Notes under the pieces: generated by a model
What the model saw: only the letters and a program-made list of their open reading frames with translations
Database searches by the model: none
Told to the model about the DNA's origin: nothing
Shown here: piece by piece, positions 8,128 through 35,274 of the stretch
Position numbering within the stretch: the stretch's first letter is position 1
Layout of the letters: each line of letters starts with the position of its first letter
Made by a program: the position numbers and the translations under genes
NCBI GenBank assembly: GCA_965222075.1
Contig: OZ244937.1
Coordinates: 1,216,001-1,280,000 of the forward strand
Direction of reading: 5' to 3'
DNA length: 64,000 nucleotides
From: Candidatus Latescibacterota bacterium
Lineage (GTDB): Bacteria > Latescibacterota > UBA2968 > GCA-2709665

Positions 8128-8136
8128 AGATATGCC

Positions 8137-8379
8137 ATGATCGTCAAAATAACTTCAAAACGCCAGGTCACTTTTCCTGCACGGGTGCTGGACGCTCTGG
8201 GGGTTGGCCCGGGCGACCAACTCGAAATCGTAGAAGGGCCCGACGGGTTCGCCCTGCGGCCCAGACGCATTGATCATTCCCGTCTTGGGACGTTGCGCGA
8301 TAAGATCCGGCGCGGACGTGGGACGTTTGATCTCCAGGACTTCAGGGAGCAATCGTATGACCCGTCGCTTCGGGATTGA
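8137..8379 (+). CDS. AbrB/MazE/SpoVT-family antitoxin
   Basis: MIVKITSKRQVTFPARVLDALGVGPGD swapped-hairpin motif; ATG at 8137 follows an AAGGAG RBS. Confidence 0.9.
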   Translation: MIVKITSKRQVTFPARVLDALGVGPGDQLEIVEGPDGFALRPRRIDHSRLGTLRDKIRRGRGTFDLQDFREQSYDPSLRD

Positions 8380-8755: not shown

Positions 8756-8820
8756 AAAGAAACCCTTGCGGGCCAATCCCGCTCTGACGATATCATTGCC
8801 TGATTCAAGCCAGGACCAAC

Positions 8821-12150: not shown

Positions 12151-12155
12151 CCGGT

Positions 12156-15700: not shown

Positions 15701-15789
15701 TCGAGCACGACGACGAAAGCGTCCGCAAGAACGCCAAGCACGCCCAGGACAACCTGCTCAAAAGGGGTTACTTTAGCGTCATGGACTGA
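12760..15789 (+). CDS. large all-helical hypothetical protein in the defence island
   Basis: 1009 aa ORF with YFFSRLRNPWWIQPL..G.FKSPP..WP..YL and AINTTRGRALE motifs; no P-loop recognised. Confidence 0.8.
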   Translation: MQSWKKPTSETVERSLALIEKETDRQYFFSRLRNPWWIQPLAERGCFKSPPDIRYLPDGYVQLPFWPELQYLKNICKKDAPKEIIQEIIQIVLQLPAVDNPRVYNDILDIALELDGEQSARLNPKMLEYARLEHQFLPFQYPELLAHWTAQDQTEAVLELANILVQFDPDPQAEEKQKQRKEINDDQTASVKDQVASMRTILRPVPRFNENYQEILNEGVRPLAEKVPYKVARMLMDATASMIRLGKHEDDLESGKSSDYSEIWCPRLNQQSRDYPDPQETLVNTLTYACEKVYEKLPASIEALDSALRNQQWDVFRRLRQHLYALYPGEQTRPWIRELVLVYGDYAKWEHYYEFQRMIRVACEHFGAELLTEDERAQIFDAILSGPSKEDFREKMGEQFTEDGFEQRRREFHRQQLRPFTTVLFGEHAGYFQELENDETADEVTDENYWPVKESKGGRVTSRSPRSPEELANLPDEELLAYINDWQDEHWDRDDGHTQITIEALSGAFQTVFKDPIITDASRLSFWMKNRDKILRPTYVRAMIDAMQEHIKAKNFDKLDEWFPFCEWVLSHPDSENEEGVGSGLFGDESRESPNWHTSRRAVCDFIEACLPAAQYAAQAGLKPDVDVPLLFRGQLGRLLEMLCTQYDWHLDQDNSTLLNRDDQLAEAINTTRGRALENLVNFGLWVRRHDDRAEVHEMKAILEKRFSSEAEYPLTLPEHAILGMWYRQIFDLDEKWAIARKSVFFPQNNMRAWREAFGNFLRRSRPDKPIFNEFRDDFEFALEHLDCLRQQKQSGPKSTDILGQHLFKYYVWEVYPLKGAGSLLEDFYKATGGERAHWATLFAYVGRSLENTGKRLDEGLKDRIVAFFEWRLEVGEPAELREFASWLKAECMDAEWRLKALLEVLEIGETLDETGTLEVGWWDHPRTWLPHEVTRSMPALLPMHTPRAVECFAKLIDSMPKSGEVHIPTDDAKAILKAGFEHDDESVRKNAKHAQDNLLKRGYFSVMD
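14589..14621. repeat. CCTGCCTG...CAGGCAGG palindromic insertion, copy 2 (33 bp, in frame)
   Basis: cctgcctgcagcgcagtacgctgcgcaggcagg adds LPAAQYAAQAG; removal gives GAA GCC TGT CTT AAA (EACLK). Confidence 0.8.
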
Positions 15790-20003: not shown

Positions 20004-20142
20004 CTCTGATGTTGACCGATGTCTATTTAATATTTGAACAATTATTCATATAACCTGCGCGAACTTATCGGGAACATCCGAAGCGAAAAAGGGGTCTAAC
20101 CAACGCATTCTCATCTTTCCACCTGTATTTCTCACGATTTCA

Positions 20143-21051
20143 ATGCAAATCCAAATCTCAGGCCTCACCAAGGTTTATCACAAAGGCGCTCCGCCCGCGC
20201 TGGATTGTGTGGACCTGGAGATCCGGCACGGCACCTTCGGGCTGCTGGGCCCCAACGGCGCTGGAAAGACGACGCTGATCAAGGTCCTGTCGACCCAGAT
20301 GGTTCCCACCGAAGGTTGGGTGAGGATCGACGGCCGGGACCTTCAAAGCGACCGCGTAGAGGTCCGCAGCCGTCTGGGGTATCTGCCTCAGCATTTTGGG
20401 GCGTATCCCAAGCTTACAGGCTGGGAGTTTCTGGACTACATGGGGCGGCTTGCCGGGCTGCACGAAGGCCGGAAGCGCAGGGAACGGGTTGCCGAAGCGC
20501 TGCGCGACGTGGGGCTTTATGAGGATCGCAACCGCCGGGCCGGCACCTATTCGGGGGGGATGATGCGCCGGCTGGGCATTGCGCAGGCCATCCTTGCCGA
20601 ACCGGAATTTCTGATTGTGGACGAACCCACGGTGGGTCTCGACCCGGAGGAGCGGATCCGCTTCCGGTCTATTCTGGGCCGTCTCAGCCGGGACCGGGCC
20701 ATCCTGATCTCCACGCATATTGTCAGCGATATTTCCAGCACCTGTGAAGACCTGGCGGTGCTGAATGCGGGCCGGATCGTTTACCACGGCCCCCCTGAAG
20801 ACCTCGCACAGCAGGCAGAGGGGAAGACCTGGCACGTCCGGGTGGACGATGCCGGGTTTGAAGCCCTGACCAAACGGTTCTACGTGGTGACGATTGCCGT
20901 GGATGGAGACCGGATGGATCTCAGGATGGTGGGAGACGGCGATCCGCCTCCGGAGGCCGAACCGGTGGCGCCCAACCTGGAAGACGCGTATGTTTACTTT
21001 ATGCGGATGGAGACCGAAGGCGCAGAAGTAGGTAATACGAAACTGAGATGA
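20143..21051 (+). CDS. ABC-2 type exporter ATP-binding protein
   Basis: [23 protein letters not shown] and C-terminal PNLEDAY. Confidence 0.95.
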   Translation: MQIQISGLTKVYHKGAPPALDCVDLEIRHGTFGLLGPNGAGKTTLIKVLSTQMVPTEGWVRIDGRDLQSDRVEVRSRLGYLPQHFGAYPKLTGWEFLDYMGRLAGLHEGRKRRERVAEALRDVGLYEDRNRRAGTYSGGMMRRLGIAQAILAEPEFLIVDEPTVGLDPEERIRFRSILGRLSRDRAILISTHIVSDISSTCEDLAVLNAGRIVYHGPPEDLAQQAEGKTWHVRVDDAGFEALTKRFYVVTIAVDGDRMDLRMVGDGDPPPEAEPVAPNLEDAYVYFMRMETEGAEVGNTKLR

Positions 21052-24000
21052 ATGCCATCAAGAACATTCTGGGCGTGGCCCGATATGAACGGAAGATGCT
21101 CCTGCGGACCACCAAGTTCCGCATCCTGGGGGGCATCGGGGTCGCCATTCCGCTCCTTCAGGGCATCGGTATGGCGGTTGCGGAGGCCAATGGGGTCGAC
21201 CTGGGGTCGGGGCTGGACGCCTACATACCGTTCTACACCTACAGCTACCTCCAGGCGGTGGTGATTGCCTTTATTGTGGGAGATTTCCGGGCCGCAGACG
21301 AGCGAGCCTCGGTCTACGAGGTGGTGGCTGCCCGCCCGATTTCCACGGCCGAGTTGGTGATGGGGAAGTATCTGGGGGTGGTGGGGGCGCTCTTTACGCT
21401 GAGTCTGGGCGTGCTGCTGCTGGCGCTGGCGGTTCAGGCCGCCAAGATCAGCATTACCAAAACGCCCTTTACCCTCAAGCCCTACCTGATCTACCTGCTG
21501 CTGATGAACCTGCCCGCGCTGATCTATATGTCGGCGGTGACCTTCTTCCTGGGGGCTCTGCTGCGGCGGCAGACGGCGGTCACCCTCATCACCATTGCCT
21601 ATGGGCTGGCCGTACTCTTCTTCCTGGGGCGGCGCTACGGGGGCATCTACGATTTTGGGGCATTTTTCGCACCGCTCTTCTACTCGGACCTGCTGGGCCT
21701 GGGAGATGTCGAGCGCGTGATCGACCAGCGCTTTTTTTACCTGGCGCTGGCCCTCTGTTTCTTCGGGCTGTCCATCGAGCGTTACCCCCGGCTGCCGCAG
21801 TCGGCCGCCTGGACCTGGTTTGGTCGGGGGGTTGCGGTATTCGGGCTGGCTGCCGCCGCGGGGCTTTACGTTTATATGGACCGGCAGGACGTTGAGAGAG
21901 AGGCCTATCGGGCGGCCCTGTTTGAGGAGCAGACGCAGTATGCGCAGGCGTCCGCGCCGGAGGTGGTACACTACGACCTCCAGGTGGATCTGATGGCTGA
22001 TGGGACTCCGCTGCAGGCCCGGGCCCGGATGCAGTTGAAAAATGCTGGGGATGCGGCCCTGGATACGCTGGTTTTCAGTTTGAATCCGGGGTTGACGCTG
22101 CGTTCGGTTTACGGGCCGTCCGGAGCGGAGGTGGCCTGGAGACGGAAGGCCGCAGTCATCCGGGTCTCCCCGGGCGACCCGCTGGCCCCGGGGGGGGAAT
22201 ACCGGTTGACCTTTGTCTACGAAGGGGAGATCGACCGCGATGGGTTTGACCTGTTCCGGCAGCGCTCCCAAAGGCGGCTTCACAAGCGGCGGGCGGCGGG
22301 GCCGTTCGATACCAAAGGGGATCTGACGGCGTGGATCCGGAAGGACTCGGCCTTCCTGCCGCCCCGTAGCCGGTGGTATCCCGTGCCCGGCGTGGATTAT
22401 GGTCACACGGGAGACCGGCCCGTCTCTTTTGCCACGGCGGATATTGTTGTCTGGGCGCCCGCGGGGCTGGAGGTCGTGACGCAGGGAAGGCCCGCCGGGC
22501 GAAAGCGGGAGGGGGACCGGGAGCGGACGGCCTGGAAGGTGGAGCGGCCGGTGCCGTTTTTTTCGCTGAATGCCGGGACCTATGAGGTCTTCAAGGCCCA
22601 GGTCCATGGCCTGGAGATCGCGTTCTACCTGCACCCGGCGCACCGGAAGCAGGTCGTCTTTTTTGAAGATGCAAAAGAGGAGGTGCTGGAGGTCTTAGAC
22701 CAGATGCTGGATTCGATGGAGCAGGAGACCGGGCTGGCCTATCCCTATCCCAGGCTCTCCGTAGTGGAGGTGCCCTTTCAGGTGCAGTGGTATTACGAGG
22801 GCTGGCAGGAAAATGGAGGGCTGACGCAGCCGGGCGTGCTGATGGTGGAGGAAGACGTGCTGATGGGCCTGCGCCTGAGGCAGAGGCTGAAGCGGATGAG
22901 CAAGAGACAGCGCCGAAACGACGATCCGGCGCGGCTCAAGCGGGATCTGCTGGTGAGCGCGATTTTTCGGACCTTTTTCAGTCGAGAAAGCTCCCGAGAC
23001 GGGGTTTTCCGGAGCCCGGTCGCCCAGCTCTGGTCTTTTGACAAGGCCTTCCGGGGTGAGAATTTCTCCCTGCTGAAGCGGGGGCTGCCCCTTTATATGC
23101 AGGAGGACCTCAATACGGAGCTCCAGCAGGCCTTTTATACCAGCCGGCGCCGGCGGGGATTCTCAAGGTTTCGGCGCCCGCCGCGGACGGCGGGGACGTC
23201 GTGGGATACGCTGGTGGTGCGGATGCAGCAGCGGTCTTTTTCGGATGTCGATCCGGCCGAGGAGGCCGATCTGTATCGGGCGGTCCTGGACGCCAAGGGG
23301 CCGCCGCTGTTCCGGATGATCGAGGCGGTGGTGGGTGACGAGGATTTTCGAGAGGTCCTGAAGGGGTTCGAAGCGGACCATCGCTACGGCGAGGCCACCT
23401 TTGCCTCCTTCGAGAAGGCGGCCCTTTCCGATACGGCCAAAACCGGCGGCCGGACCAACCTGTCCCGGCTCCTCCACGACTGGCTCTATGACACCCACGT
23501 GCCGGGCTACACCCTGACCCGCGTGAAGGCCTACAAGGTGGACGACGATTTGGGTATGATGGTCTACCAGGTGGTCGTGCGCATCCGAAACGGGGAACCG
23601 GGGCGCGGATTCGTACAGATCCGGGTGATGGGCAGGGAGGATGAGGCGGTCAAGGGGGTGGAGATCGAAGGCGGCCAGGAGGTGGAGGTGGGCATGATCC
23701 TCTGGGACCGCCCGTTTCGGGTGATGGTCGAACCGTTTTTCGCCCGCAACCGGCGGCCCCTGGTTGCCCCGCTACGCATTCCGGAGCAGCCGATGGAGGG
23801 GGGCGCCAGGTCCTACGTCCGGGAGGTGACCGAAGAGGAGAGGACCATTTCGGAGATTATTGTGGACAACGACGACGAGGGGTTCTCCATGCCGATCCGC
23901 CGGGTGCAGCGCTACCTGCGGCCCGAACTGAAGGGCGACAACTGGAAAGAGGGCCAGTTCCCGTTCGCGTTTGGCCGTTACGAGACGACCTACCGCTGGA

Positions 24001-24413
24001 AGCGCCCCGGAGACGGGGCGCAGCCGGCCGTCTGGACGGCCCGGCTGCCCCATGGCGGCGACTACGATGTGGCTTTCTACACGATTCCCCGCTGGAAACG
24101 CCGGAAAGGGGCCACGTCCTTTACGCTGAGGGTGTCCCACAGCGGCAAGACGGATACACTGAAGCTCGAAACCGGCGCGACCAAAGGTGGGTGGCATACC
24201 CTGGGTCGGTTCCGGTTTGAGGCGGGAGAGGAGGCCCGCGTGGAGCTGTCGGACCTGGCCAACGGCAGGGTCTATGCCGACGCCGTGCGGTGGCGTTATG
24301 TGGACCCGGAGCATCCCGATGAGGTGTATGAGGAGGACGTTCCAACCTGGACGTTTGGCGGGCGTGGGCGGGGTGGGAGAGGGAGAGGTGGGAGAGGGTT
24401 CCGGAGGTTTTGA
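21048..24413 (+). CDS. ABC-2 permease fused to an M1-aminopeptidase-like extracytoplasmic domain and a golvesin/xanthan-lyase C-terminal-like domain
   Basis: N-terminal TM block (ARYERK, RPISTAELVMGKYLG); M1-like segments (VVHYDL, WYPVPG, YPYPRLSVVEVP) with no HEXXH seen; C-terminal IIVDNDD...GWHTLGRFRF...VYADAVRW; RGG-rich tail. Confidence 0.8.
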   Translation: MNAIKNILGVARYERKMLLRTTKFRILGGIGVAIPLLQGIGMAVAEANGVDLGSGLDAYIPFYTYSYLQAVVIAFIVGDFRAADERASVYEVVAARPISTAELVMGKYLGVVGALFTLSLGVLLLALAVQAAKISITKTPFTLKPYLIYLLLMNLPALIYMSAVTFFLGALLRRQTAVTLITIAYGLAVLFFLGRRYGGIYDFGAFFAPLFYSDLLGLGDVERVIDQRFFYLALALCFFGLSIERYPRLPQSAAWTWFGRGVAVFGLAAAAGLYVYMDRQDVEREAYRAALFEEQTQYAQASAPEVVHYDLQVDLMADGTPLQARARMQLKNAGDAALDTLVFSLNPGLTLRSVYGPSGAEVAWRRKAAVIRVSPGDPLAPGGEYRLTFVYEGEIDRDGFDLFRQRSQRRLHKRRAAGPFDTKGDLTAWIRKDSAFLPPRSRWYPVPGVDYGHTGDRPVSFATADIVVWAPAGLEVVTQGRPAGRKREGDRERTAWKVERPVPFFSLNAGTYEVFKAQVHGLEIAFYLHPAHRKQVVFFEDAKEEVLEVLDQMLDSMEQETGLAYPYPRLSVVEVPFQVQWYYEGWQENGGLTQPGVLMVEEDVLMGLRLRQRLKRMSKRQRRNDDPARLKRDLLVSAIFRTFFSRESSRDGVFRSPVAQLWSFDKAFRGENFSLLKRGLPLYMQEDLNTELQQAFYTSRRRRGFSRFRRPPRTAGTSWDTLVVRMQQRSFSDVDPAEEADLYRAVLDAKGPPLFRMIEAVVGDEDFREVLKGFEADHRYGEATFASFEKAALSDTAKTGGRTNLSRLLHDWLYDTHVPGYTLTRVKAYKVDDDLGMMVYQVVVRIRNGEPGRGFVQIRVMGREDEAVKGVEIEGGQEVEVGMILWDRPFRVMVEPFFARNRRPLVAPLRIPEQPMEGGARSYVREVTEEERTISEIIVDNDDEGFSMPIRRVQRYLRPELKGDNWKEGQFPFAFGRYETTYRWKRPGDGAQPAVWTARLPHGGDYDVAFYTIPRWKRRKGATSFTLRVSHSGKTDTLKLETGATKGGWHTLGRFRFEAGEEARVELSDLANGRVYADAVRWRYVDPEHPDEVYEEDVPTWTFGGRGRGGRGRGGRGFRRF

Positions 24414-24497
24414 TGGGCTTTGCCCGACAAGCTGAGGACATTAACTTTCAGTAATCGTTGCAACATATTCTACAACAATAAATTAAAGGGGTCAAGA

Positions 24498-25571
24498 TTG
24501 GGCATTCGATGGGTCGGATATCCGGGCGTCTTTCTCGTGCTGCTGGCCGGTTGCAGCCGCCAGACGGAACAGCGGTCTGTGGACCTCACGGTTCCGGTGA
24601 CGGTGCAAACGGTTGAACTGGGGGCTATGGAATCTACGGTTACGGCCACCGGCACGCTGCGGTCTGTGCGGGAGGCGCAGCTGATCACGGAGGTAGAGGG
24701 CATTTTTCACCTGGTGACGACCGATGGGGGGAGGAAGCCTGCCGAAGGGATGCGGGTTTCTCAAGGGCAGATGATTGCCAGGCTGAAAAACGAGGAACAC
24801 GTGGTGGGGGCCCGGCTGGAATCGCGGAAGCTGGCGCGGGAGACTGCGGGCAAGACGTTGAAGGAGCAGGAGATCCTCTTCAAGCGGGGACTGGTCACGG
24901 AAAAAGAGGTCGAAGATGCCCGTCGGGAATCCGCTGATGCCGAGTCAAACCATCAGGATGCCCTTATCCAGATCGAAAAGACCCGGATCCGGGCACCGAT
25001 TTCCGGGTTTTTGACCGGGGTAACCGACGCCACAGAGGGCACCCTGATTGGTCAGGCAACGCTGATCGGCAAGGTGATGGACTACGGCGAGGTGGTGGTG
25101 GATCTGAAGATCCCGAATGCCTATATTGCCGCCATCGCTCTGGGGCAGGTGGTTCGGGTGGAGAACTATGCTTTTGCGGGTCGGGTATTTGCCGGCCGAA
25201 TCACGGCCGTGGATCCGGCGCTGGATCCCACCACCCGCACCTTCCGGGCCAAGGCAACAGTCCGGAATCCCGGTCTCCTCCTCCGGCCCGGGATGTTTGT
25301 CAAGGCCCGGATTGTGACGGATTCCCACGAGGACGTGGTGGTGATTCCCCGCCGGTTCGTGCTCAACCGCCAGAATCAAAAGGTCGTGTTTATCGAAGAA
25401 AGCGGCCGCGCCCAGATGCGACAGGTCAAGACCGGGTTGGAAGACAAAGAGAATATCGAGGTCCTGGACGGACTCGAAGCGGGCGAACGCCTGATTACAA
25501 GCAACTATGAGACCCTCCGCCGCCGCACGCGGGTGCGTGTAACAGGAGAAGGCGTGCCTGGAGGGAATTGA
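24498..25571 (+). CDS. RND periplasmic adaptor (membrane fusion protein), lipoprotein
   Basis: Lipobox LLAGC; IRAPISG, DPTTRTF, LRPGMF and GLEAGE motifs. TTG start at 24498 preferred after AAAGGGG (track start 24420). Confidence 0.9.
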   Translation: MGIRWVGYPGVFLVLLAGCSRQTEQRSVDLTVPVTVQTVELGAMESTVTATGTLRSVREAQLITEVEGIFHLVTTDGGRKPAEGMRVSQGQMIARLKNEEHVVGARLESRKLARETAGKTLKEQEILFKRGLVTEKEVEDARRESADAESNHQDALIQIEKTRIRAPISGFLTGVTDATEGTLIGQATLIGKVMDYGEVVVDLKIPNAYIAAIALGQVVRVENYAFAGRVFAGRITAVDPALDPTTRTFRAKATVRNPGLLLRPGMFVKARIVTDSHEDVVVIPRRFVLNRQNQKVVFIEESGRAQMRQVKTGLEDKENIEVLDGLEAGERLITSNYETLRRRTRVRVTGEGVPGGN

Positions 25572-25621
25572 AAGCCTTTAAATCCGCATTCCCAAGCTCC
25601 TTAAAAAAATCCTTACCTTAT

Positions 25622-28600
25622 ATGTCCCTTCCTGAATTCTCTACTCGATATCCGGTTACCATTGCGATGGCCACCCTGGCGGTTGTGCTGCTGGGGTGGA
25701 TTTCGCTGGAGCGGCTGGGGGTGGACCTGCTGCCGGATCTGCAGACGCCGGTGGTGACGGTAGACCTGCGGGCGCCGGGGAAGTCGCCGCGCGAGATGGA
25801 GGAGCGGTATGCCCGCCGCCTGGAGGGGGATATCAGCACGGTGCGCAAAGTCAAGCGGGTGCATTCTGTCTCGAGGGCCGGGCAGGCGGTGGTGGTGGCG
25901 GAGTTTTCCTGGGATGCGGATATGGACTTCGCCCTGTTGGACGTGCAGAAGAAGGTGGGGCGCTATGCTGCGGACACGGAGGTGACCACGCTGGACGTCA
26001 CGCGGGAAGACCCCCAGGCCCTCCCGGTGATGCGGGTGGCGGTCACCTCGGGGGAAAGGGTGGATCTGGATGCGCTGGTGGGGACGGTGGAGACGGTGGT
26101 CAAGCCCAGGCTGGAGGGGCTGGATGGGGTGGCTTCAGCAGAGATCGAGGGCGGGGCGGAGAAGGAGGTCCGGATTATCCTGGATGCTTATTTGCTGGAG
26201 GCCTACGGACTGACGCCGCAGACGATTGTGAACCGCGTGCAGTCGGCCAATGCGGATGTCTCGGGCGGCACCCTCAAAGACGGCCAGCGCGCCTACCTGG
26301 TCAAAGGGATGGGGCGGCTGGTGGATATAGAGAGCATCCGAAACCTGGTGGTGGGTGAGCGGCGGGGGATGGATGCCAGCGGCCAGCCGGACCCCGGTGC
26401 GCCAAGGGTGCCGGTGAGCGTGGGCGATGTGGGGCGGGTGGACCTCCGGTTTGAGGAGCGGGAGACGATGGTGCGGCTAAACGGCCCCGAGTGCGTGGGG
26501 CTGGCCGTTTACCGGGAGGCCGGTGCGAATACGGTATCCGTGGTGAGGTCCGTGTTCGAGATGCTGAGGGAACTGGAGCGTGACCTGCCTGATACCCGAT
26601 TTATTGTGGTGGAAAACCAGGCCCGGTTCGTGGAGCAGGCCGTGGGAGAGGTAGAAGCGTCGGCAATCTACGGCGCCCTGCTGGCCGTGGGGGTGCTCCT
26701 GCTGGCCCTGCGCAACTGGACGGCGACGCTGGTGATCGGCCTGGCCATTCCGATTTCCGTGCTGGCCACGTTCACGCTGATGTATTTTCAGGGGCTGACC
26801 TTAAACGTGATGACGCTTGGGGGGCTGGCCCTGGGCGCTGGCATGCTGGTGGACAACGCGATTGTGGTGATCGAAAATATCTACCGCCACCTGGAACTGG
26901 GCGAGGATGCGCGCACCGCGTCCGCCCGGGGCGCCGGGGAGGTGGGGGTGGCTATTCTGGCGTCCACGATGACCACGGTGTCTGTGTTTTTGCCCATTGT
27001 CTACCTGCACGGGCTGGCCGGCGAGCTCTTCAAGGAACAGGCCTGGACCGTGGCGTTCTCGCTCATCTCCTCGCTGGGCGTGGCCATGGCCACAGTGCCC
27101 ATGCTCACCTCCCGCGTGCTGCGCCGGGCGCCGGTGGGTGGGGCGGGCATCCGGTCTGAACGGTTCCAGGGTTTCCTGGAACGCGCCTTGAACCGGAAGG
27201 TCATCGTTGTGCTGGTGACCCTGGGGGCGCTGGGGACCGCGGCCTACCTGAGCCGGTCGATTCACACCGAGTTTATCCCCCGGGAAGACCAGGGGATTTT
27301 TCAGGTGGACCTGGCGCTGCCGGAGGGCACCCGGCTGGAGGCGACAGACCGGGTTGCGCTGCGGGCTGCGGCGATTGTCGAGGAGGTCTGCGATCCCGAT
27401 GCGGAGCATATCTACCTGAGGGTCGGCGTCGATCCGGCCAGGCTCACCAGCGCCGGGCAACCGACCGGCCCCAACAGGGCCACGATCTCGGTTGTCCTGG
27501 CCCAGGGTGCACAGCGGCGCACGGCTGCAGAGCTGGTGGCCATACTGGATACGCCCCTGCGCGAGATTCCTGAGCTTAAGGTGAACTACCAGCTTCATGA
27601 TACTGCACTGGAAGGGGTTATGGGAGGCAGCGAAGCGCCTGTCCAGGTGGAGGTCACCGGGGAGAATCTGGACCTGCTCCGGGATCTGACGGCGGATTTG
27701 AAGGCCCGGATCGAAGCCCTGCCGGCGGTTTACAACGTGAGGACGAGCTTTCAGGACGGACAGCCGGAGATTGACCTGGTCCTGCGCGACGATGTTGCAG
27801 CGGCGTTCGGGCTTACGGCCCAGTCAATTGTCCAGGATCTGGAGCGGAGGCTTTCTGGTGAAGTGGCCGGCGAACTGTCCAAGGACCAGCGGGAGCGGAC
27901 CATCCGGGTGGGGTTTGAGGATGTGGACCTGCGTGAATTGGAGGGCATCCGGGTTGACGGCGTAGACGGGGCCCTGCTCACGCTGGGGGATATTGCAAAG
28001 CTGCAGATCGTGGAGGGCCCCAGGGAGATTCTCAGAAATGGACAGCGCCGGGTGGGGCATATTACCGGCTACCTGGCCGAAGGCGCGGTTTTAAGCGAGG
28101 CCATCGATCAGATCGGCCTGGTGATCCGGAATACGGCGCTTCCCTACGGGTATCGGGTGGCCATTGGGGGGGAAGAGCGGGAGCGGGCCGAGTCGTTCGG
28201 CAGCCTGAAGTTTGCTCTGCTGCTGTCCGTGGTGCTGGTTTACATGGTGATGGCCTCGCTCTTTGAGTCCCTGCTGCACCCCTTTACGGTGATGTTCACA
28301 GTGCCCTTAGCGGGCATCGGGGTGGTCCTGGCGTTCTGGGGGCTGGAAGAGCCCTTCAGCGTGATGGCCTATATCGGCATGATTATGCTGGGCGGCATTG
28401 CGGTGAACGATGCCATTATCCTGGTGGACCGGATCAACCAGCTGCGGCAGGGGGGCGGAGCGCTCCGGGTGGCGGTTCTGCAGGCCACACAGGACCGGCT
28501 GCGTCCCATCCTGATGACCAGCATGACCACCATTCTGGCCCTGATGCCGATGGCTTTCGGGGTGGGAGAAGGGGCCCGGCTGCGGGCGCCGATGGCGATT

Positions 28601-28729
28601 GCAGTGATCGGAGGGCTGGTGACTTCCACCCTGATGACCCTGATCGTGATCCCGGTGGTCTATGAGACGATCGACCGCCTGCGCCTGCCTGTGCGTCGCA
28701 CGCAGACAGGCAGGAGGCCATCCGGATGA
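25622..28729 (+). CDS. RND (AcrB-family) permease 1
   Basis: RYPVT, GMLVDNAIVVIENI, FESLLHP, GIAVNDAI, RLRPILMT and PMAIAVIGGL motifs. Confidence 0.95.
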   Translation: MSLPEFSTRYPVTIAMATLAVVLLGWISLERLGVDLLPDLQTPVVTVDLRAPGKSPREMEERYARRLEGDISTVRKVKRVHSVSRAGQAVVVAEFSWDADMDFALLDVQKKVGRYAADTEVTTLDVTREDPQALPVMRVAVTSGERVDLDALVGTVETVVKPRLEGLDGVASAEIEGGAEKEVRIILDAYLLEAYGLTPQTIVNRVQSANADVSGGTLKDGQRAYLVKGMGRLVDIESIRNLVVGERRGMDASGQPDPGAPRVPVSVGDVGRVDLRFEERETMVRLNGPECVGLAVYREAGANTVSVVRSVFEMLRELERDLPDTRFIVVENQARFVEQAVGEVEASAIYGALLAVGVLLLALRNWTATLVIGLAIPISVLATFTLMYFQGLTLNVMTLGGLALGAGMLVDNAIVVIENIYRHLELGEDARTASARGAGEVGVAILASTMTTVSVFLPIVYLHGLAGELFKEQAWTVAFSLISSLGVAMATVPMLTSRVLRRAPVGGAGIRSERFQGFLERALNRKVIVVLVTLGALGTAAYLSRSIHTEFIPREDQGIFQVDLALPEGTRLEATDRVALRAAAIVEEVCDPDAEHIYLRVGVDPARLTSAGQPTGPNRATISVVLAQGAQRRTAAELVAILDTPLREIPELKVNYQLHDTALEGVMGGSEAPVQVEVTGENLDLLRDLTADLKARIEALPAVYNVRTSFQDGQPEIDLVLRDDVAAAFGLTAQSIVQDLERRLSGEVAGELSKDQRERTIRVGFEDVDLRELEGIRVDGVDGALLTLGDIAKLQIVEGPREILRNGQRRVGHITGYLAEGAVLSEAIDQIGLVIRNTALPYGYRVAIGGEERERAESFGSLKFALLLSVVLVYMVMASLFESLLHPFTVMFTVPLAGIGVVLAFWGLEEPFSVMAYIGMIMLGGIAVNDAIILVDRINQLRQGGGALRVAVLQATQDRLRPILMTSMTTILALMPMAFGVGEGARLRAPMAIAVIGGLVTSTLMTLIVIPVVYETIDRLRLPVRRTQTGRRPSG
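28684..28710. repeat. CCTGCCTG...CAGACAGG palindromic insertion, copy 4 (27 bp, in frame)
   Basis: cctgcctgtgcgtcgcacgcagacagg adds LPVRRTQTG near the C-terminus of RND1; removal gives CTG CGC AGG AGG CCA TCC GGA TGA. Confidence 0.75.
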
Positions 28730-31700
28730 CCCTTTCCCATGTGGCCGTGCGCAGGCCGGTGACCACGGCCATGTTCTTTACCGCCCTGGCCCTTCTGGGG
28801 ATGATTTCCTGGACCAGGCTGCCCGTGCAGCTCTTTCCGGAGGTCATCTACCCGATGGTCCACGTGAGCCTGACCCTGCCGGGGGCCTCGCCCGAGCAGA
28901 TCGAACGGGATCTGCTGGTGCCCACCGAGGGGGAGATCGGGAAATTAGAGGGTATCCAGGATATCGATTCTTTCGCCCTGACCAATTCCGGGGGCATCCA
29001 GGTGTCGTACGATCCGGATGTGGATATGAAGTTTGCGATCCTGCAGCTGGAAAGCCGGATCAGCCAGCTCCAGCCCCTCTACCCGGAACGCGCCCGGGCG
29101 AGGGTGCAGCGGTTCGATTCCTCCGATCTGAGTTCGTCCGTTATGCAGCTTCACGTGCTGGGGGAAGGGGACCTGAACTGGCTGCGGGACTTTACGGAGG
29201 AGAAGGTCCGGCCCGAACTGGAGGCCGTGGACGGGGTGGTCAACGCCGCGGTGATGGGAGGGCGCCGCCGTGCTGTGGAGGTGATTGTGGACCCCACCCT
29301 CTGCCAGGCCTATCAGGTGACAATGGGCCAGATCCGGTCTCGAATCAATGGGTTTAACCGGCGGCGGGAGTACGTGGGCCGGGTTTACGACGGAGCGCAG
29401 GCCTACGCGGTGAGTCTGCAGGGGCAGTTTACCGACCTGCAGCAGATCCGGAACCTGGTGCTCAAGCCGGAGATCCCGTTGCGGCTGGGGGATGTGGCGG
29501 TGGTGCGCTATGGCCTCCAGGAGCAGACCGACCGGCACCGGGTCAACGGGAAGTCTTCGGTAGGTATCCGCATCCAGAAGGACGATGAGGCCAACCTGAT
29601 CGCCGTTTCCCGGGATGTGGAGGCTGTGGTGGCGCGCCTCAACCTGGAGTTTGCCGATGAGGGGGTCGAGCTGGGGGTCAGTTCCAGCCAGGCGGAATTG
29701 ATGGAGGAGGCCCTGTCCACGCTGAAGCAGGCGGCCGTGGTGGGGGGAGGGCTGGGGCTGTTTGTGCTTTTCCTTTTCCTGCGCAATTTCCGGTTCGTAT
29801 CGGTCCTGCTGCTGGCCATTCCGGTCTCCCTGCTGGTGACCTTTAATCTGATGTACGCCTGGGGCCTCTCCATCAACGTGCTGTCTCTCTGCGGCCTGGC
29901 ATTGGCCGTGGGGATGCTGACGGACAACGGGATTGTGGTGATGGAGAGCATCTTCAAGCACTACGAGCGGGGAAAGTCCCCCATGGACGCCGCCCGGGAC
30001 GGCACCACAGAGGTGGGGCGGGCCGTGGTGGCCGCCACGGCGACCACGGTGACGGTCTTCCTGCCGGTCGTGTTTATCCAAAGCGATGCCCAGGATATCC
30101 TCCGTGAACTGGCCCTCTCGATGACCTTTCCCCTGCTGGTCTCGCTGCTGGTCGCCCTTACCCTGGTGCCTACCCTGGCCGCCCGGACGCTTTCCAGACA
30201 GACCCGCCGCCCGGCCGGAACCGGGCGTTTGATGGAGCGATACACCCTTCTGCTGAAAGCTTGCCTCAGACACCGGGTGGCGGTGGTGGTGGGCGTGTGC
30301 GCTGCCATGGGGGGTACGCTGATCGTTTCCTTCTTTTTTATGCTCCAGCAGGAGGTCCGGGAAGAAGAGACCCGGTTTACGGTCTATATCGACCTCCCCG
30401 AAGGGACCACGCTGGATGCAACCGACGAGGTGGTCAAACAGGTGGAGACGGCCGTTGGGGAGATCGAAGGGCTGGACCGGTTCACAACCAGCGTGCAGGA
30501 GTCGGAGGCCAGCATTACGGTGATGCTTCACCATCGCCTGGAGCGTCCCGGGGAGATTTCACTTGAGGAGATCAAGCAGCAGTTAGAGGAAAAGACGCAG
30601 AATATCCAGGGGGGCGTAATCGGCTACGAACCCAAACCCAGGGCCAGGCGGGGAGGCGGGAGGGGAGGCATCGGCAGGCGCCGCCGGTCGGGCGGTTTTA
30701 ACCTGACGGGGAGCGCGCCGTCGGAACAGGCCGTGGTGCGGGGGTACGATTTTATCACCCTGCAGATGGTTGCCGACGATCTGGTCTTCCGCCTGCAGGA
30801 GCTTGAGGAGATTGACGAAAACAGCGTGCGTGCGGACGCCGAGCGGGGCGCGCCCGAGATCCAGGTGATCCCCGACGATGCGCGGATGTTCGACCGCCGA
30901 CTGGAGATCGAAGCTGTTCTGGCGGGCGTGGGGGATGCCCGGCCGGACGGGTTTCAGACTACGGTGCCTTTTTTGTGGCCCGATGCAACGGAGGTGCCGA
31001 TCGAGGTCCGGAATACGGAAGACCCGCAGAACGCGTCGATCACCTTAGCCGAATTCAGACAAATGCCGCTTCCCACCCAGACGGGGGACTTTGTTCCCTT
31101 AGAAGAGGTGGCCCGGGTGCGCACGGATGAAGGCAGGGGCAGTGTGCTGCGCACCGACCAGTCCCGGCGCGTGATGGTTTCCTACCGGTTTACCGGAGAA
31201 ATCCTGGACTCACAGCCCCGCTTGGATCAGGCCAGGCGGTTGGTCCGGACGCTGGTGTCGGACATGGTGCTGCCCCAAAGCTATACGGTCGAGATTGAAG
31301 AGGCGGAGGCGGATACGATCTACTACTGGATGATGGGCGTGGCGGGGGTGCTGATCTATATGATCCTGGCTTCCCTGTTTGAGTCTTTCTCTTCCCCGCT
31401 GATCATCCTCTGTACGCTGCCTTCTGCGGTGATCGGATCCTGCTGGGCGCTGATCCTCTCCCAGACCGGTCTGAGCCAGCAGGAGGGGCCGATGGCCCTG
31501 CTGGGATTCATCGTGCTGATCGGTATTGCCGTCAACAACGGGATTCTTCTGATCGATGCGGTCGGCACCCTTCGGAGCCGGGACGGGTACCGCCGGGAGC
31601 GGGCCGTGCTTGAGGCCGGGCGATCCCGCGTGCGGCCGATTCTGATGACCTCGGCCACCACGCTTTTGGGCGTTATGCCCCTGGCGTTGAAGTTCGGGGG

Positions 31701-33438
31701 GGATTTTGAGATCTGGCCGCCGTTCGCCATCACCGTGCTTGGAGGGCTTTCGGTCTCGATGCTCTCAACGCTGATCTTTATCCCGGTGGTCTATATGGGG
31801 CTGGATCAGGTCGTGCGGTGGCTTGTGGAGACCGGGGTGCCCGGCGTGGTGCTGGGCACGCTGGTTGGAGGGGCGGCAACATATGGCGTTTACACCCGGT
31901 ACGACAGCCTGTTCTGGACGTGCCTGGTGGCGCTTCCTTTCTGGTTCGCCGCCCTGGGGCTGGTCTGGGCAGGGCTCAGGGTGCACCGCGCACGGGTGGA
32001 GGCCCGCGGGCGGCTGGGCGCGGTTCGTTTGATTCAACTTAGAAATCTGACAAAGATCTACGGCGCCCCGGGCCGCTTCAGACGGGAATGGGCGCGGTAT
32101 ATTCGGCGTGTGCAGCGGCTGCAGGCCGAAGGGGCAGACCCGGTTGACCGGAAGGCGGTCAAAGAGGGCCTGGTGTGGAAGCTGCCGCTGCTGGGGCTGA
32201 TCGGGTACCTCCATACCTATTTTGAGGAGGGAATGTGGATCTACATCCATTCCCTGGTCACCTGGGGGATGCTGGCTCACCTGGCGCAGGCGGGGGCGGT
32301 TCTCCGGCCGTTTGAGGTCCGGCTGCCCGGGTGGATACGACGGGCGGGGAGGGGGGGGGTGCGCAATCTTCTGCCGGCCCTCTTTCTGGGCTATATCCAC
32401 TGGCGCTTGCGCCTGCCGTCGGTGACCGTGGCGTCTGCGGCGGTCTGGCTGGTCCTCCGTCTGGTCCGTTTTCTGGCCGGGCGGGTGCGGGACGGACGGG
32501 TGGATGTGGAGAAGATCACCGGGCGGCTGGGCTTTCTGAGGCGCTGGACCTACCGCGGAGCCTGCGCACTGCCCCTCATCGGGGTGCCCAGGCCGGCGTT
32601 CCGGGCCCTCTCGGGCGTGGACCTGGAGATCGGCCGGGGGATGTTCGGGCTTCTGGGCCCCAACGGGGCGGGGAAGACCACCCTGATGCGGATCGTCTGT
32701 CAGGTGCTGGAGCCGAGTTATGGATCGGTGAGCATCGACGGCCGCAATGTGCTGCGGGAGGGACGCATCCAGGGCCTGGTCGGGTACCTGCCCCAGCATT
32801 TTGGGCACTACAACCACCTTTCGGCCTATGCGTTCTTAGAATACCGTGCGCTTCTGGAAGGGCTTCGAGATGGGGCCGAACGGCGTGCCCGGGTGCTGGC
32901 GTGCTTAGAGCAGGTCAACCTCACAGACCGGAAGGAAGACCCGATCGGGTCCTTTTCGGGAGGGATGAAGCAGCGGGTGGGCATTGCGCAGACCCTGCTG
33001 CACATGCCCCGGATTATTGTAGTGGACGAGCCGACCGCCGGGCTCGACCCGTTAGAGCGCATCCGGTTTCGCAACCTTTTGGCCCGGGTGAGCCAGGACC
33101 GGATTGTGATCTTCTCCACCCATATCGTAGAGGATATTTCGGGCAGTTGCAACCGGCTGGCGGTCCTCAACGCCGGGCGCCTGCTGTATACCGGCACTCC
33201 CCAGTCCATGCGCGACCTGGCCCGGGGACGGGTGTGGGAAGCGGTGATTGCGGAGGGTGCCTTCTTGCAGGTTGAACGGGAGCTGAACCTGATTTCGCAC
33301 GTGCGGACGCCGTCCGGGGTGCGGGCAAGGTTCCTCTCAGAGGCCCCTTCCCGGGACTTCCACGCCCAGCAGGTTGATCCAACGCTTGAGGATGCCTATC
33401 TCTATCTCCTCAGGCAGGAGAGGGGCACCCCATGTTGA
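28726..33438 (+). CDS. RND (AcrB-family) permease fused to extra TM helices and a C-terminal ABC ATPase
   Basis: Full AcrB motifs (RRPVTT, GMLTDNGIVVMESI, RVRPILMT) followed by [26 protein letters not shown] and PTLEDAY in one uninterrupted 1570 aa ORF. Confidence 0.92.
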   Translation: MTLSHVAVRRPVTTAMFFTALALLGMISWTRLPVQLFPEVIYPMVHVSLTLPGASPEQIERDLLVPTEGEIGKLEGIQDIDSFALTNSGGIQVSYDPDVDMKFAILQLESRISQLQPLYPERARARVQRFDSSDLSSSVMQLHVLGEGDLNWLRDFTEEKVRPELEAVDGVVNAAVMGGRRRAVEVIVDPTLCQAYQVTMGQIRSRINGFNRRREYVGRVYDGAQAYAVSLQGQFTDLQQIRNLVLKPEIPLRLGDVAVVRYGLQEQTDRHRVNGKSSVGIRIQKDDEANLIAVSRDVEAVVARLNLEFADEGVELGVSSSQAELMEEALSTLKQAAVVGGGLGLFVLFLFLRNFRFVSVLLLAIPVSLLVTFNLMYAWGLSINVLSLCGLALAVGMLTDNGIVVMESIFKHYERGKSPMDAARDGTTEVGRAVVAATATTVTVFLPVVFIQSDAQDILRELALSMTFPLLVSLLVALTLVPTLAARTLSRQTRRPAGTGRLMERYTLLLKACLRHRVAVVVGVCAAMGGTLIVSFFFMLQQEVREEETRFTVYIDLPEGTTLDATDEVVKQVETAVGEIEGLDRFTTSVQESEASITVMLHHRLERPGEISLEEIKQQLEEKTQNIQGGVIGYEPKPRARRGGGRGGIGRRRRSGGFNLTGSAPSEQAVVRGYDFITLQMVADDLVFRLQELEEIDENSVRADAERGAPEIQVIPDDARMFDRRLEIEAVLAGVGDARPDGFQTTVPFLWPDATEVPIEVRNTEDPQNASITLAEFRQMPLPTQTGDFVPLEEVARVRTDEGRGSVLRTDQSRRVMVSYRFTGEILDSQPRLDQARRLVRTLVSDMVLPQSYTVEIEEAEADTIYYWMMGVAGVLIYMILASLFESFSSPLIILCTLPSAVIGSCWALILSQTGLSQQEGPMALLGFIVLIGIAVNNGILLIDAVGTLRSRDGYRRERAVLEAGRSRVRPILMTSATTLLGVMPLALKFGGDFEIWPPFAITVLGGLSVSMLSTLIFIPVVYMGLDQVVRWLVETGVPGVVLGTLVGGAATYGVYTRYDSLFWTCLVALPFWFAALGLVWAGLRVHRARVEARGRLGAVRLIQLRNLTKIYGAPGRFRREWARYIRRVQRLQAEGADPVDRKAVKEGLVWKLPLLGLIGYLHTYFEEGMWIYIHSLVTWGMLAHLAQAGAVLRPFEVRLPGWIRRAGRGGVRNLLPALFLGYIHWRLRLPSVTVASAAVWLVLRLVRFLAGRVRDGRVDVEKITGRLGFLRRWTYRGACALPLIGVPRPAFRALSGVDLEIGRGMFGLLGPNGAGKTTLMRIVCQVLEPSYGSVSIDGRNVLREGRIQGLVGYLPQHFGHYNHLSAYAFLEYRALLEGLRDGAERRARVLACLEQVNLTDRKEDPIGSFSGGMKQRVGIAQTLLHMPRIIVVDEPTAGLDPLERIRFRNLLARVSQDRIVIFSTHIVEDISGSCNRLAVLNAGRLLYTGTPQSMRDLARGRVWEAVIAEGAFLQVERELNLISHVRTPSGVRARFLSEAPSRDFHAQQVDPTLEDAYLYLLRQERGTPC

Positions 33439-34151
33439 CCTGGCGCGATCTAACGTGGAGCGCCTGGAGGCTTTCCCGGCTCAGCTTTCAGATCGTGTTC
33501 CACCGGAAGCTCCTCTTTATGGGGGGAGGCATCCTGGCCTATTACGCGATTCTTTACGCCCTGGCCGTCTTTCGCCCCGGAGAGGGGTTCAGTGCGATTC
33601 AGGCGCTGCACATTCTGGTTGAGGCCCCCGGCACCGTGCTTGCGATTTATCTCACCATGGATCTGGTGGCGGGGGAGCGGGACCGGGATACCCTGGAGGT
33701 GCTGTTCAGCACCTCTGCTTCGCACTATAAAATCTGGATGGTCCGCATGCTGTCCATCTATGTGGTGCTTGGGGCATCGCTGGTGGCGATGAGCACCCTC
33801 TGCTATTTCCTGTTTGCCGAATTCCTCGTTGTGGAGGGGGCGCTGAATGCCTTCCTGCCTGCGTTCCTGGTGGCCAATCTGACGTTCTTTTTTTCTGTCA
33901 CTTTCCGCAGCGGCAATGCCGCCGGGATGCTCTCGCTGGGGTTTTTGATTCTGATCTTGCTGGCTTCCGGCCCCCTGAGAGACACCCCGTATTTCCTTTT
34001 TCTCAACCCGTCCGATCCTCCCATAGGCGTAGACGATACGCTCTGGGAGGACCAGGTGCTGGTCAATCGCGCGGGCGTTGCCGCCCTGGGCTGTGTGCTG
34101 CTTTTCCTGGCGTTGCGCCGGATGGAAGGGAGGGAGCGGCTGTTGTCGTAA
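33432..34151 (+). CDS. ABC-2 type permease
   Basis: About 6 hydrophobic segments; GERDRDTLEVLFS EAA-like loop. Confidence 0.85.
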   Translation: MLTWRDLTWSAWRLSRLSFQIVFHRKLLFMGGGILAYYAILYALAVFRPGEGFSAIQALHILVEAPGTVLAIYLTMDLVAGERDRDTLEVLFSTSASHYKIWMVRMLSIYVVLGASLVAMSTLCYFLFAEFLVVEGALNAFLPAFLVANLTFFFSVTFRSGNAAGMLSLGFLILILLASGPLRDTPYFLFLNPSDPPIGVDDTLWEDQVLVNRAGVAALGCVLLFLALRRMEGRERLLS

Positions 34152-35274
34152 CACGTCTTATATACCCATCTCCCGGCCTTTGGACCGTCCCCCAGATTCC
34201 CGGAATCTTCCGGCCGCAATCGGGGCAGGAGCCGCTGTCTCCAATCCGTACTTGAAGGATGCGGAAGCCGAAGCGTTCAACCAGTAGCGCGCCACAGCCG
34301 GGACAGGTGGTATTTTCAAAATCTCCCACCTGTCCGGGAAGGTTGCCGGCGTAAACATAATGGAGACCGGCTTCTTTGCCGATCTCGGCCGCCCGAAGCA
34401 GGGTCCTGGCCGATGTGTTGGCAGGATCGGTCATCTTGTAGTCCTTGTGGAAGGCCGTGACGTGCCAGGGGATGTCCAGGGAAATGGAGGCGAGAAACTC
34501 GGCTGCGTCCCGCATTTCCTCCTCCGATGTGTTCCAGTCCGGCACCAGAAGGGTCACGATCTCCATCCAGAACCCTCGCTTGTATACCATCCGGACCGTG
34601 TCCAGGATGTTTTGGAGTACCCCCCCCAGTTTCCGATAGTTGCGGTCTGACATGGTCTTCAGGTCGATTTTATAACAATCGGTCCAGGGCCTGAGGTAGT
34701 CCAAAACTTCCGGCGTGGCGTTGCCGTTGGAGACAAAGGCCGTCTTTAGCCCTTCGGACCTGGCCAGCCGGAAGACCTCCAGGGCCCATTCGGAGGTGAT
34801 CAGGGGCTCGTTGTAAGAACTGCCCACCATCATCGCCCCCAGCTCTTTGCCTGTGGCAATCAGTTGTTCGGGAGAGATTTCGCGGGGACGGACGTCGGCC
34901 GCAGGGTCGCGTAAGGCCTGAGAAGTCAACCAGTTTTGACAGTAGGAACAATGCAGATCACATCCCAACATCCCAAAAGTCAACGTGTTAGACCCGGGAT
35001 AGACGTGAAAGAAGGGCTTCTTCTCCGTTGGGTCGCACTGGAGCCCGCCCACATACCCCCAGGGCACACGCAGTTTCCCCTCCTGATTAAACCGCACCTT
35101 GCAGATGCCCTGTCTCCCCTCCGGAATCCGGCAGCGGTGTCCGCACGCATAACAGCGGATCCGATTGCCCTCCAGGTGCTCCCACAGTTCGCCTTCCACG
35201 GCTTCTGCGGTCAGCCCGTTTAATACCTCGGCCAGGGTGGGTTTGGACACCAGGGGTAAACCCAGAGGTTTCAT
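34063..35274 (-). CDS. amrS: AmmeMemoRadiSam system radical SAM enzyme
   Basis: CYACGHRC..GICKVR N-terminal motif, DPTEKKPFFH, CDLHCSYC (CxxxCxxC), YNEP, PWHVTAFH, YVYAGN and C-terminal CxxC...CxxC...GIW. Confidence 0.9.
   Translation of the reverse strand: MKPLGLPLVSKPTLAEVLNGLTAEAVEGELWEHLEGNRIRCYACGHRCRIPEGRQGICKVRFNQEGKLRVPWGYVGGLQCDPTEKKPFFHVYPGSNTLTFGMLGCDLHCSYCQNWLTSQALRDPAADVRPREISPEQLIATGKELGAMMVGSSYNEPLITSEWALEVFRLARSEGLKTAFVSNGNATPEVLDYLRPWTDCYKIDLKTMSDRNYRKLGGVLQNILDTVRMVYKRGFWMEIVTLLVPDWNTSEEEMRDAAEFLASISLDIPWHVTAFHKDYKMTDPANTSARTLLRAAEIGKEAGLHYVYAGNLPGQVGDFENTTCPGCGALLVERFGFRILQVRIGDSGSCPDCGRKIPGIWGTVQRPGDGYIRRVTTTAAPSLPSGATPGKAAHSPGRQRPRD

Follow-up and report, generated by a model that had tools for sequence, protein, structure and literature searches.

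A predicted six-gene operon encoding a fusion of an RND permease with an ABC ATPase in Candidatus Latescibacterota

Resistance-nodulation-cell division (RND) pumps, driven by the proton gradient, and ATP-binding cassette (ABC) exporters, driven by ATP, are taught as alternative engines of envelope export. In the MdtABC-TolC pump of E. coli, encoded in the gene order mdtABC, the two RND permeases assemble into an MdtB2C heterotrimer. In mycobacteria, export of phthiocerol dimycocerosates (PDIM) requires both MmpL7, a member of the RND superfamily, and the ABC-2 transporter DrrABC for one lipid cargo, while NosDFY, MacB and LolCDE use ATP for work in the periplasm. Here we describe six genes located within a 64,000-nucleotide stretch of the genome of a Candidatus Latescibacterota bacterium (assembly GCA_965222075.1, contig OZ244937.1, positions 1,216,001 to 1,280,000; hereafter the window, with coordinates counted from its first letter), the fifth of which encodes an RND permease continuous with an ABC ATPase. 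The reading that we prefer, tentatively and with a rough probability of 45%, is that these genes encode a composite envelope transporter, in which a tripartite-type RND pump is joined to an ATP-driven ABC-2 (type V) module.

Hidden Markov model (HMM) searches placed the Pfam families ACR_tran (residues 4-1025, 617.7 bits) and ABC_tran (residues 1297-1438, 93 bits) on the single protein encoded by the fifth gene, as had been proposed in a preliminary description of the window. The frame remains open, with neither a stop codon nor a frame change, across 31700-32700, where the RND part passes into the ATPase. Single contigs of three other studies span 31000-32679, differing at 1, 1 and 10 bases and showing no insertion or deletion (indel); a G run at 32345-32360 falls within this indel-free coverage. 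The only breaks in these contigs are at 32650-32681, in Walker A words common to many ATPase genes, where the depth jumps; further contigs continue from 32652 to 33600. When residues 1040-1570 were used as the query, ACR_tran and ABC_tran turned up together on every one of the 120 best relatives (identity 39-100%); most of these are 1524-1667 residues long, and their taxon labels are mixed (Gemmatimonadota, Latescibacterota, Acidobacteriota). When the RND part alone was used as the query, ABC_tran was present on 109 of the 120 best clusters, so it is not the case that homologs of this permease generally lack the ATPase. The 251-residue linker between the two parts has, in a set of 1.84 billion representatives, 52 relatives with E<=0.001 and is located at approximately residues 1030-1290 in 23 of 24 full-length relatives; no Pfam family was found to cover residues 1026-1290.

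Such a long open reading frame (ORF) might have arisen in one genome through a false join in the assembly, through a frameshift or through loss of a stop codon, and the G run inside the linker, as well as a related long-read bin (L014) in which the operon genes are in pieces, could be cited for this. The explanation is refuted by the indel-free contigs of the three other studies and by the fused relatives, together with the frames open at the linker matches of the phylum, which extend over approximately 1,500-2,600 residues in all but about ten cases (the shorter ones lie on contigs below approximately 10 kb or in incomplete genomes), and its remaining probability is negligible.

A locus search retained 80 loci: 22 with the full-length fused gene, three with parts of it and 55 with the ATPase only. 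The last group was rejected as consisting of ordinary ABC ATPases, none of which is accompanied by an RND gene; matches to the large permease occur in three of these loci, two of them on short contigs. The 22 full-length loci were compared together with ten from the window's own phylum. In 31 of these 32 loci the genes follow the order ATPase, large permease, adaptor, RND permease 1 and RND permease 2-ATPase, which bears out co-occurrence of the system outside the window; L024 is rearranged, and L014 is in pieces. Of the 32 loci, 28 have an ORF for the small permease after the fusion gene, and none was assigned in L024, L041, L098 and L102. Cultured carriers are found among the Bacteroidota: Parabacteroides massiliensis, Draconibacterium mangrovi (the genes being whole in these two) and Marivirga tractuosa. 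In M. tractuosa strain ac6 the fusion gene is whole, and the large permease (595 + 506 aa) and RND permease 1 (485 + 558 aa) are each split (L004:2446-5776 and L004:8506-11677), which may reflect frameshifts or sequencing errors.

Within the phylum, the linker was detected in 83 of 168 genomes (33 of the 52 of high quality), and the large-permease profile was also detected in 83 of the 168. Both features are present in 80 genomes, one only in 3 + 3 and neither in 82; the six discordant genomes are fragmented or 58-91% complete. Among 401 sampled Bacteroidota genomes the linker was found in four, the query's own included.

The six ORFs share one orientation (+ strand) and occupy 20143-34151, exactly as first described, and most of them overlap. 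Because their junctions overlap by 4, 4, 4 and 7 nt or leave a gap (one, of 6 nt), the genes are predicted to form one operon, with the following features:

20143..21051, + strand: ABC ATPase 1, 302 aa; free-standing, DrrA/GldA-like
21048-24413, + strand: large ABC-2-like permease, 1121 aa
21924..23990, + strand: M1-aminopeptidase-like pseudo-enzyme domain of the large permease, residues 293-981; probably periplasmic
21048..21941, + strand: membrane domain of the large permease, residues 1-298; amphipathic helix and seven long helices (model)
23967..24290, + strand: Golvesin_C beta-sandwich of the large permease, residues 974-1081 (Pfam PF25275)
24345..24410, + strand: Arg/Gly-rich C-terminal tail of the large permease, residues 1100-1121 (translation; low model confidence)
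24420..25571, + strand: RND-type periplasmic adaptor (membrane fusion protein), lipoprotein, 383 aa
25568..28729, + strand: RND permease 1, 1053 aa from the first start
28726-33438, + strand: RND permease 2-ABC ATPase fusion, whole gene, 1570 aa
28726..31800, + strand: RND part of RND permease 2, residues 1-1025 (Pfam ACR_tran)
31786..32007, + strand: two extra helices after RND transmembrane helix (TM) 12, residues 1021-1059 and 1062-1094 (model)
32029..32061, + strand: first beta strand of the fused ABC ATPase, residues 1102-1112 (model and sequence alignment)
32074..32568, + strand: insertion inside the fused ATPase, helices within residues 1117-1281 (model)
32599..33435, + strand: core of ABC ATPase 2 and C-terminal domain, residues 1292-1570 (Pfam ABC_tran)
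33432..34151, + strand: small ABC-2-like permease, 239 aa; approximately six hydrophobic segments

A structural model of residues 1020-1570 (alignment of 30 sequences; mean predicted local distance difference test (pLDDT) score 79.6; predicted template modelling (pTM) score 0.60) places the insertion helices at 1117-1134 (amphipathic), 1142-1165, 1169-1193, 1202-1228, 1231-1255 and 1269-1281 (short), and the start of the ATPase core at residue 1292. The detached strand 1102-1112 aligns in sequence with the start of ATPase 1. The earlier assignment of an AcrB-2 protein fused to an intact ABC ATPase was therefore right as to the fusion and the completeness of the ATPase, but not as to a plain append, the first strand being located approximately 180 residues ahead of the rest. 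According to the model, the fused ATPase is split by a helical insertion of approximately 180 residues between strands 1 and 2, and, because the chain runs from the RND part through two helices and strand 1 to the insertion and the catalytic core, the ATPase is built into the RND subunit at the membrane. The best 19-residue Kyte-Doolittle hydropathy is 1.46 and 2.06 for the helices 1021-1059 and 1062-1094, and 1.12, 1.07, 0.61 and 1.83 for the four insertion helices within 1142-1255, of which the last alone is clearly membrane-like. Residues invariant among 13 fused homologues are W1032, G1037, S1061, P1071 and W1073, as well as, around strand 1, L1108, T1109, K1110, Y1112 and G1113.

The search with the RND part also revealed natural split forms. 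Six clusters of 1221-1242 residues have no ABC_tran; one sequence (P0129) can be aligned with the window protein as far as residue 1179, its end falling inside the insertion. A metagenomic lineage 80-94% identical to P0128 contains both fused (L104, L105, L106, L110) and split (L103, L107, L108, L111) loci. The split loci are cut inside the ATPase insertion, and the RND polypeptide always retains strand 1; because of this, it would fit that strand 1 and the neighbouring helices act as a docking element. The gap of one split locus (L103:9711-10943) contains a PemK/MazF toxin-antitoxin pair and a 147-aa ORF, and the ORFs on either side are intact.

Both ATPases seem fit for catalysis. ATPase 1 matches Pfam ABC_tran with 107.7 bits and, below their cut-offs, the NCBIfam models drrA (194.5 bits) and GldA (178.8 bits); Walker A, the Q-loop, the signature, Walker B with the catalytic Glu and the H-loop are kept in 16 of 16 aligned orthologues. 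For the fused ATPase, each of the 31 sequences compared retains the five motifs. Among its paralogues in the genome, ATPase 1 comes closest (44% identity, 242.5 bits; the next scores 144.2). Foldseek matched the core of the fused ATPase to TM_1403 (4yer, E 6e-21), to NosF (7osf/7o0y, 29-31% identity) and to ABCA7/ABCA1/ABCA4, and by its nearest folds the fused ATPase is of the ABC-2 associated kind.

Both RND permeases match the full-length RND architecture of 12 helices and two loops (760.8 bits over residues 23-1035 of permease 1 and 617.7 bits for permease 2; ACR_tran cut-off 28). They share 33% identity, in an alignment that starts at residue 19 of permease 1. The best solved relative of permease 2 is MdtB (9lyq_B, E 2.9e-83). 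NCBIfam RND_permease_2 gave 627.8 and 529, which does not reach its cut-off of 1250, and the best equivalog matches were MdtB (394.9 vs 1584) and MdtC (349 vs 1774), likewise below their cut-offs. The adaptor matches NCBIfam RND_mfp (TIGR01730; 184.7 bits vs 94.9) and Pfam HlyD_D23 (77.6 bits) and HlyD_3, and has a lipobox, LLAGC, at residues 41-45. An Arg/Gly-rich low-complexity stretch (window 30631-30720) corresponds to a Gly-rich periplasmic loop of RND permease 2 (approximately residues 636-665).

The classic proton relay of AcrB consists of D407 and D408 in TM4, K940 in TM10 and an Arg in TM11. This pattern is not present in the two permeases, which have D-N in TM4 and N-N or N-D without Lys in TM10, and retain the TM11 Arg; MdtB has D-D and K at the same sites. 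Among orthologues of permease 1, TM4 ‘DN’ is found in 31/31, TM10 ‘ND’ in 21/31 and TM11 ‘RxRP’ in 31/31, and for both paralogues every one of the 31 orthologues has the TM4 Asp and the TM11 Arg. The idea that the proton relay had been lost in the fused permease was dropped, since among the ten RND paralogues of the genome (the two operon genes included) TM4 D-N occurs in seven and the TM10 Lys in none.

The large permease matches Pfam ABC2_membrane_3 (E 2e-5, 24.3 bits vs a gathering score of 31.6), the small permease, with its six hydrophobic segments, matches ABC2_membrane_2 (E 6e-6, 26.2 bits vs 27.2), and their membrane domains match each other in a profile-profile comparison (hhalign, 60%, E 8.5e-5). 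In the list of parts first drawn up, the two ATPases, the adaptor lipoprotein and the two RND permeases were confirmed, while the ‘ABC-2’ label of both permeases stays below the Pfam scores; we retain this name tentatively, on the basis of weak HMM matches, the profile match and the genetic context. In one source, large-permease homologues bear the NosY-type name ‘multi-copper enzyme maturation permease subunit’. The model of the large permease (25 sequences, pLDDT 79.6, pTM 0.73) has helices at residues 2-20, 22-47, 55-86, 100-137, 144-172, 175-196, 221-245 and 253-298.

For the rest of the large permease, besides a weak Pfam match to Peptidase_M1, Foldseek aligned residues 293-981 to IRAP, ERAP1, ERAP2 and tricorn factor F3 (E 2.5e-19, approximately 640-680 columns, 11% identity). 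VIA-align gave Z 24.8 for this domain over 500 aligned residues (root mean square deviation (rmsd) 5.5 A; 293-979 in the model), and a two-domain M1 peptidase was matched at Z 23.7 (rmsd 3.5 A, 399/433 residues aligned). Zinc aminopeptidases of the M1 family are marked by an HEXXH(18)E zinc site and a GxMEN motif; in 26 orthologues of the large permease HEXXH was found in none and a GxMEN-like string in two. In the model the domain thus has a complete M1-aminopeptidase fold, without the zinc site, and the protein is not classed as a peptidase. This fold is followed by Golvesin_C (PF25275; 62.4 bits vs a cut-off of 31.6; 53.1 bits in the Parabacteroides orthologue), a domain that resembles carbohydrate-binding modules. 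An ESM Atlas search with the ectodomain returned unnamed clusters and weak M1 or Golvesin_C leads. The large domain noted in the preliminary description is thus present, as the M1-like fold plus Golvesin_C, while its extracytoplasmic placement comes from the helix count of the model alone: the number of helices after a cytoplasmic start is odd, which makes the M1-like domain probably periplasmic. At residues 1092-1121 pLDDT falls below 50.

As noted before, the window contains no gene for an outer-membrane efflux protein (OEP/TolC). In 26 of the 32 loci such a gene separates the large permease from the adaptor; it is missing from the window and five relatives of its clade. In a quick maximum-likelihood tree of 31 fusion proteins, the OEP-less versions occupy one side of a branch with 99-100% support in the Shimodaira-Hasegawa-like approximate likelihood ratio test (SH-aLRT), far from the versions with an OEP gene; both kinds are found within one class of the phylum. 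On this tree the window belongs to a distinct clade without a TolC-like gene, and the six-gene system of this clade must either share the OEP channel of another locus or end in the periplasm. The Arg/Gly-rich tail of the large permease occurs in all six sequences of the OEP-less clade vs none of 19 of the other clade. The genome carries four OEP genes, at approximately 1.50, 2.06, 2.57 and 4.77 Mb (the window spans 1.216-1.280 Mb); three of them adjoin AcrB-like genes and the fourth clusters with an MMPL-type transporter. The surroundings of this fourth gene (L116:641-9364, approximately 4.76-4.77 Mb) form a lipid-transport-like cluster, with an MMPL-type RND gene and genes for two MlaC-domain proteins (one with DUF3047), a nucleotidyltransferase/CDP-alcohol phosphatidyltransferase fusion and LPG_synthase_TM.

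Paralogues of the first two genes also occur by themselves. L117 and L118 each have an ATPase with 65-67% identity and a large permease with 50-52%, but no RND genes, fused ATPase or small permease, and L120 and L121 contain one ATPase followed by two tandem large-permease paralogues. Since stand-alone pairs exist without RND genes, the pair formed by genes 1 and 2 may be a self-sufficient unit. In L118 (L118:6636-17225) the pair is located directly upstream of glycosyltransferases, namely a fusion of GT4 with a GT28 C-terminal domain and another GT4, accompanied by two ORFs without a Pfam family; in L117 (L117:4811-11834) ORFs of matching sizes follow in the same order. This neighbourhood may be taken as a single weak hint at the cargo.

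In the composite transporter that we prefer, the two RND paralogues would form a mixed trimer, similar to MdtB/MdtC, served by the adaptor lipoprotein. The fused ATPase would pair with the adjacent small permease to give an ABC-2 unit docked on the RND trimer, and the free ATPase and the large permease would either join that unit, making it a heterodimer, or make up another of their own. ATP hydrolysis could move or extract an amphipathic cargo at the inner membrane, or could move the zinc-less M1-like/Golvesin_C domain holding the cargo, and the proton-driven RND trimer and the adaptor would then pass the cargo outward; in the OEP-less clade an outer-membrane channel may be borrowed from another locus, or may be unused. 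That two ATPases and two permeases make up one heteromeric ABC exporter, as was first suggested, is a putative arrangement; the status of the two ATPases as nearest paralogues in the genome and the co-encoding of the two pairs in 31 of 32 loci speak for the heterodimer, and the stand-alone pairs speak in part against it. The heteromeric RND complex and the relay for a large substrate, also proposed early, are likewise putative. Our best guess at the cargo is a lipid or glycoconjugate; a glycolipid or glycoconjugate is suggested because of the glycosyltransferase neighbours in L118, with their probable counterparts in L117, and because of Golvesin_C.

Several observations weigh against this reading. 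The locus has no outer-membrane gene, and all four OEP genes of the genome stand beside other RND-type transporters. Split versions exist, so the covalent link may not be essential, and the stand-alone pairs imply that genes 1 and 2 need not depend on genes 5 and 6. Both permeases score below the Pfam ABC-2 cut-offs. Of the six linker helices, no more than three show clear hydrophobicity here, ‘six membrane helices’ being a property of the model (mean pLDDT as given above). The two genomes behind the glycosyltransferase hint belong to a single genus, and other stand-alone loci have no glycosyltransferases. A single metatranscriptome run has RNA contigs over parts of 32106-33600 and not over 31000-32105; they are a weak hint of expression only and cannot prove one transcript or one protein product. 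Such contigs show neither a transcript, its ends nor its level, and the uncovered part carries no inference.

It could be argued that the ABC-2 module moves no cargo across the inner membrane, and that ATP is used to move the periplasmic M1-like domain, which would take up cargo from the periplasm or the outer leaflet and load or gate the RND pump. The presence of NosF among the top fold matches of the fused ATPase and the NosY-type name of the large-permease homologues are in line with this, and a domain of approximately 690 residues that lacks HEXXH throughout the 26 orthologues suggests binding or scaffolding rather than an enzyme. The fold, however, cannot discriminate, as true exporters (ABCA type, TM_1403) are matched as well; stand-alone paralogues beside glycosyltransferases look export-like, and the periplasmic side of the domain is derived solely from a helix count in a model. 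We hold this explanation to be rather unlikely. An unlikely possibility is also that two separate ABC-2 transporters stand beside an RND pump, one of them homodimeric and encoded by genes 1 and 2, the other composed of the fused ATPase and the small permease and built on a trimer that contains RND permease 2 twice; the fusion would then provide co-localisation and stoichiometry without energetic coupling. Each ATPase gene indeed overlaps a directly following permease gene, the pairs of L117 and L118 and the one ATPase with two large permeases of L120 and L121 stand alone, and, both ATPases being catalytically complete, neither needs a partner for a degenerate site. On the other hand, 31 of 32 loci, from more than one phylum, have both pairs in a single operon, the ATPases are mutually closest paralogues, as for partners born by duplication, and a highly conserved linker is hard to explain by co-localisation alone.

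The composite transporter might be more tightly coupled than proposed above, with ATP hydrolysis mechanically linked to the proton-driven RND cycle and one cargo moved in a single concerted step. We know of no transporter with such dual-energy coupling and consider it distinctly unlikely; if true, strand 1 of the ATPase and the membrane hairpins would be part of the RND subunit, and extraction and expulsion would be doubly powered. A further proposal is that proton coupling was lost and that the built-in ATPase directly drives the conformational cycle of the RND permease. The ATPase is anchored to the RND subunit through a conserved linker and both paralogues depart from the D407, D408 and K940 pattern of AcrB, but D-N in seven of the ten RND paralogues of the genome, with Lys in none, marks a trait of the subfamily or lineage and not of the fusion, and the TM4 Asp and TM11 Arg are kept in all 31 orthologues of both paralogues. 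In other members of the RND superfamily, e.g. SecDF, these two residues suffice for the proton path, and we regard an RND permease driven by ATP as highly improbable.

All parts of the system are of known kinds; we found no published description of the fixed way in which they are combined, of the split ATPase or of the zinc-less M1 permease. A literature search, with subscription journals and TCDB outside its coverage, found no natural RND-ABC fusion, in agreement with the earlier remark that no functional characterisation of this architecture was known; the gene tables of PMC10434189 do not concern an RND-ABC system. The join of RND and ABC parts is kept across several phyla; in one phylum approximately half of the species sampled have it, as do a few cultured Bacteroidota. 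If the parts form one machine, it could show how a flippase or extractor in the inner membrane hands cargo over to a pump that spans the periplasm, a step merely inferred for systems built of separate proteins. The conserved linker, the detached strand and the natural split forms offer experimental handles, the cultured carriers make the question testable, and the zinc-less M1 fold on a permease is a second unexplained part.

A scan of 19800-34500 for promoters and terminators gave four promoter-like sites vs 2.8 expected and 17 terminator-like sites vs 11.6 expected, i.e. nothing usable. The genes flanking the operon (nitrilase-like, thiamine pyrophosphate enzyme, radical SAM, beta-propeller) are not conserved in any fetched locus, so they give no clue to the cargo. 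Elsewhere in the window, the region 4725-15789 has a lower GC content than the operon (0.49-0.59 vs 0.60-0.65) and the look of a defence island, with genes for an 1118-aa PLD + SNF2/helicase protein and an 1109-aa Eco57I/MmeI-type methylase and a 1009-aa ORF without a Pfam family. At 56318-59934 an LptA-like gene, an ABC ATPase gene (approximately 57691-58314) and rpoN (sigma-54) are found together; this matches the order lptA-lptB-rpoN, which we take to be the usual arrangement of bacteria with an outer membrane.

When compared with known systems, the operon resembles MdtABC in that two genes for paralogous RND permeases come after an adaptor gene, MdtB and MdtC being the nearest named relatives. 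It differs in that its scores are far below the MdtB/MdtC cut-offs, in its TM4/TM10 residues, in the fusion of the second permease to an ABC ATPase, and in the addition of two ABC-2-like permeases and a second ATPase. With NosDFY it shares an ATPase fold like that of NosF, a NosY-type name and a large periplasmic module on an ABC-2-type permease; here, however, the module is fused to the permease and has the M1-peptidase fold and not that of NosD, there are no nos genes nearby, and the whole is joined to an RND pump. The likeness to MacAB-TolC lies in an ATP-driven inner-membrane unit and an adaptor encoded in one operon, with a TolC-like channel in other versions of the system, whereas the permeases of the operon weakly match ABC-2 and not FtsX/MacB_PCD, and an RND trimer would be present too. 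A gene for an 823-aa MacB-type permease (MacB_PCD + FtsX) is located at 1869-4340 of the window, approximately 16 kb upstream of the operon, and its predicted domains indicate that a permease of the classical ABC tripartite type coexists with the fused system in this genome.

With respect to its fold, the large permease (residues 293-981) resembles the M1 aminopeptidases IRAP, ERAP1/2, tricorn factor F3 and LTA4 hydrolase, from which it differs by the missing zinc motif, the replacement of the helical C-terminal domain by Golvesin_C and the fusion to a membrane permease. The pairing of an RND protein with a DrrA-type ABC-2 transporter, drrA being the best NCBIfam match of ATPase 1, recalls MmpL7 and DrrABC. 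In that system the partners are separate proteins and the RND member is an MmpL protein, whereas in the operon described here they are fused, and the RND permeases are AcrB-like, accompanied by an adaptor and without flanking lipid-synthesis genes.

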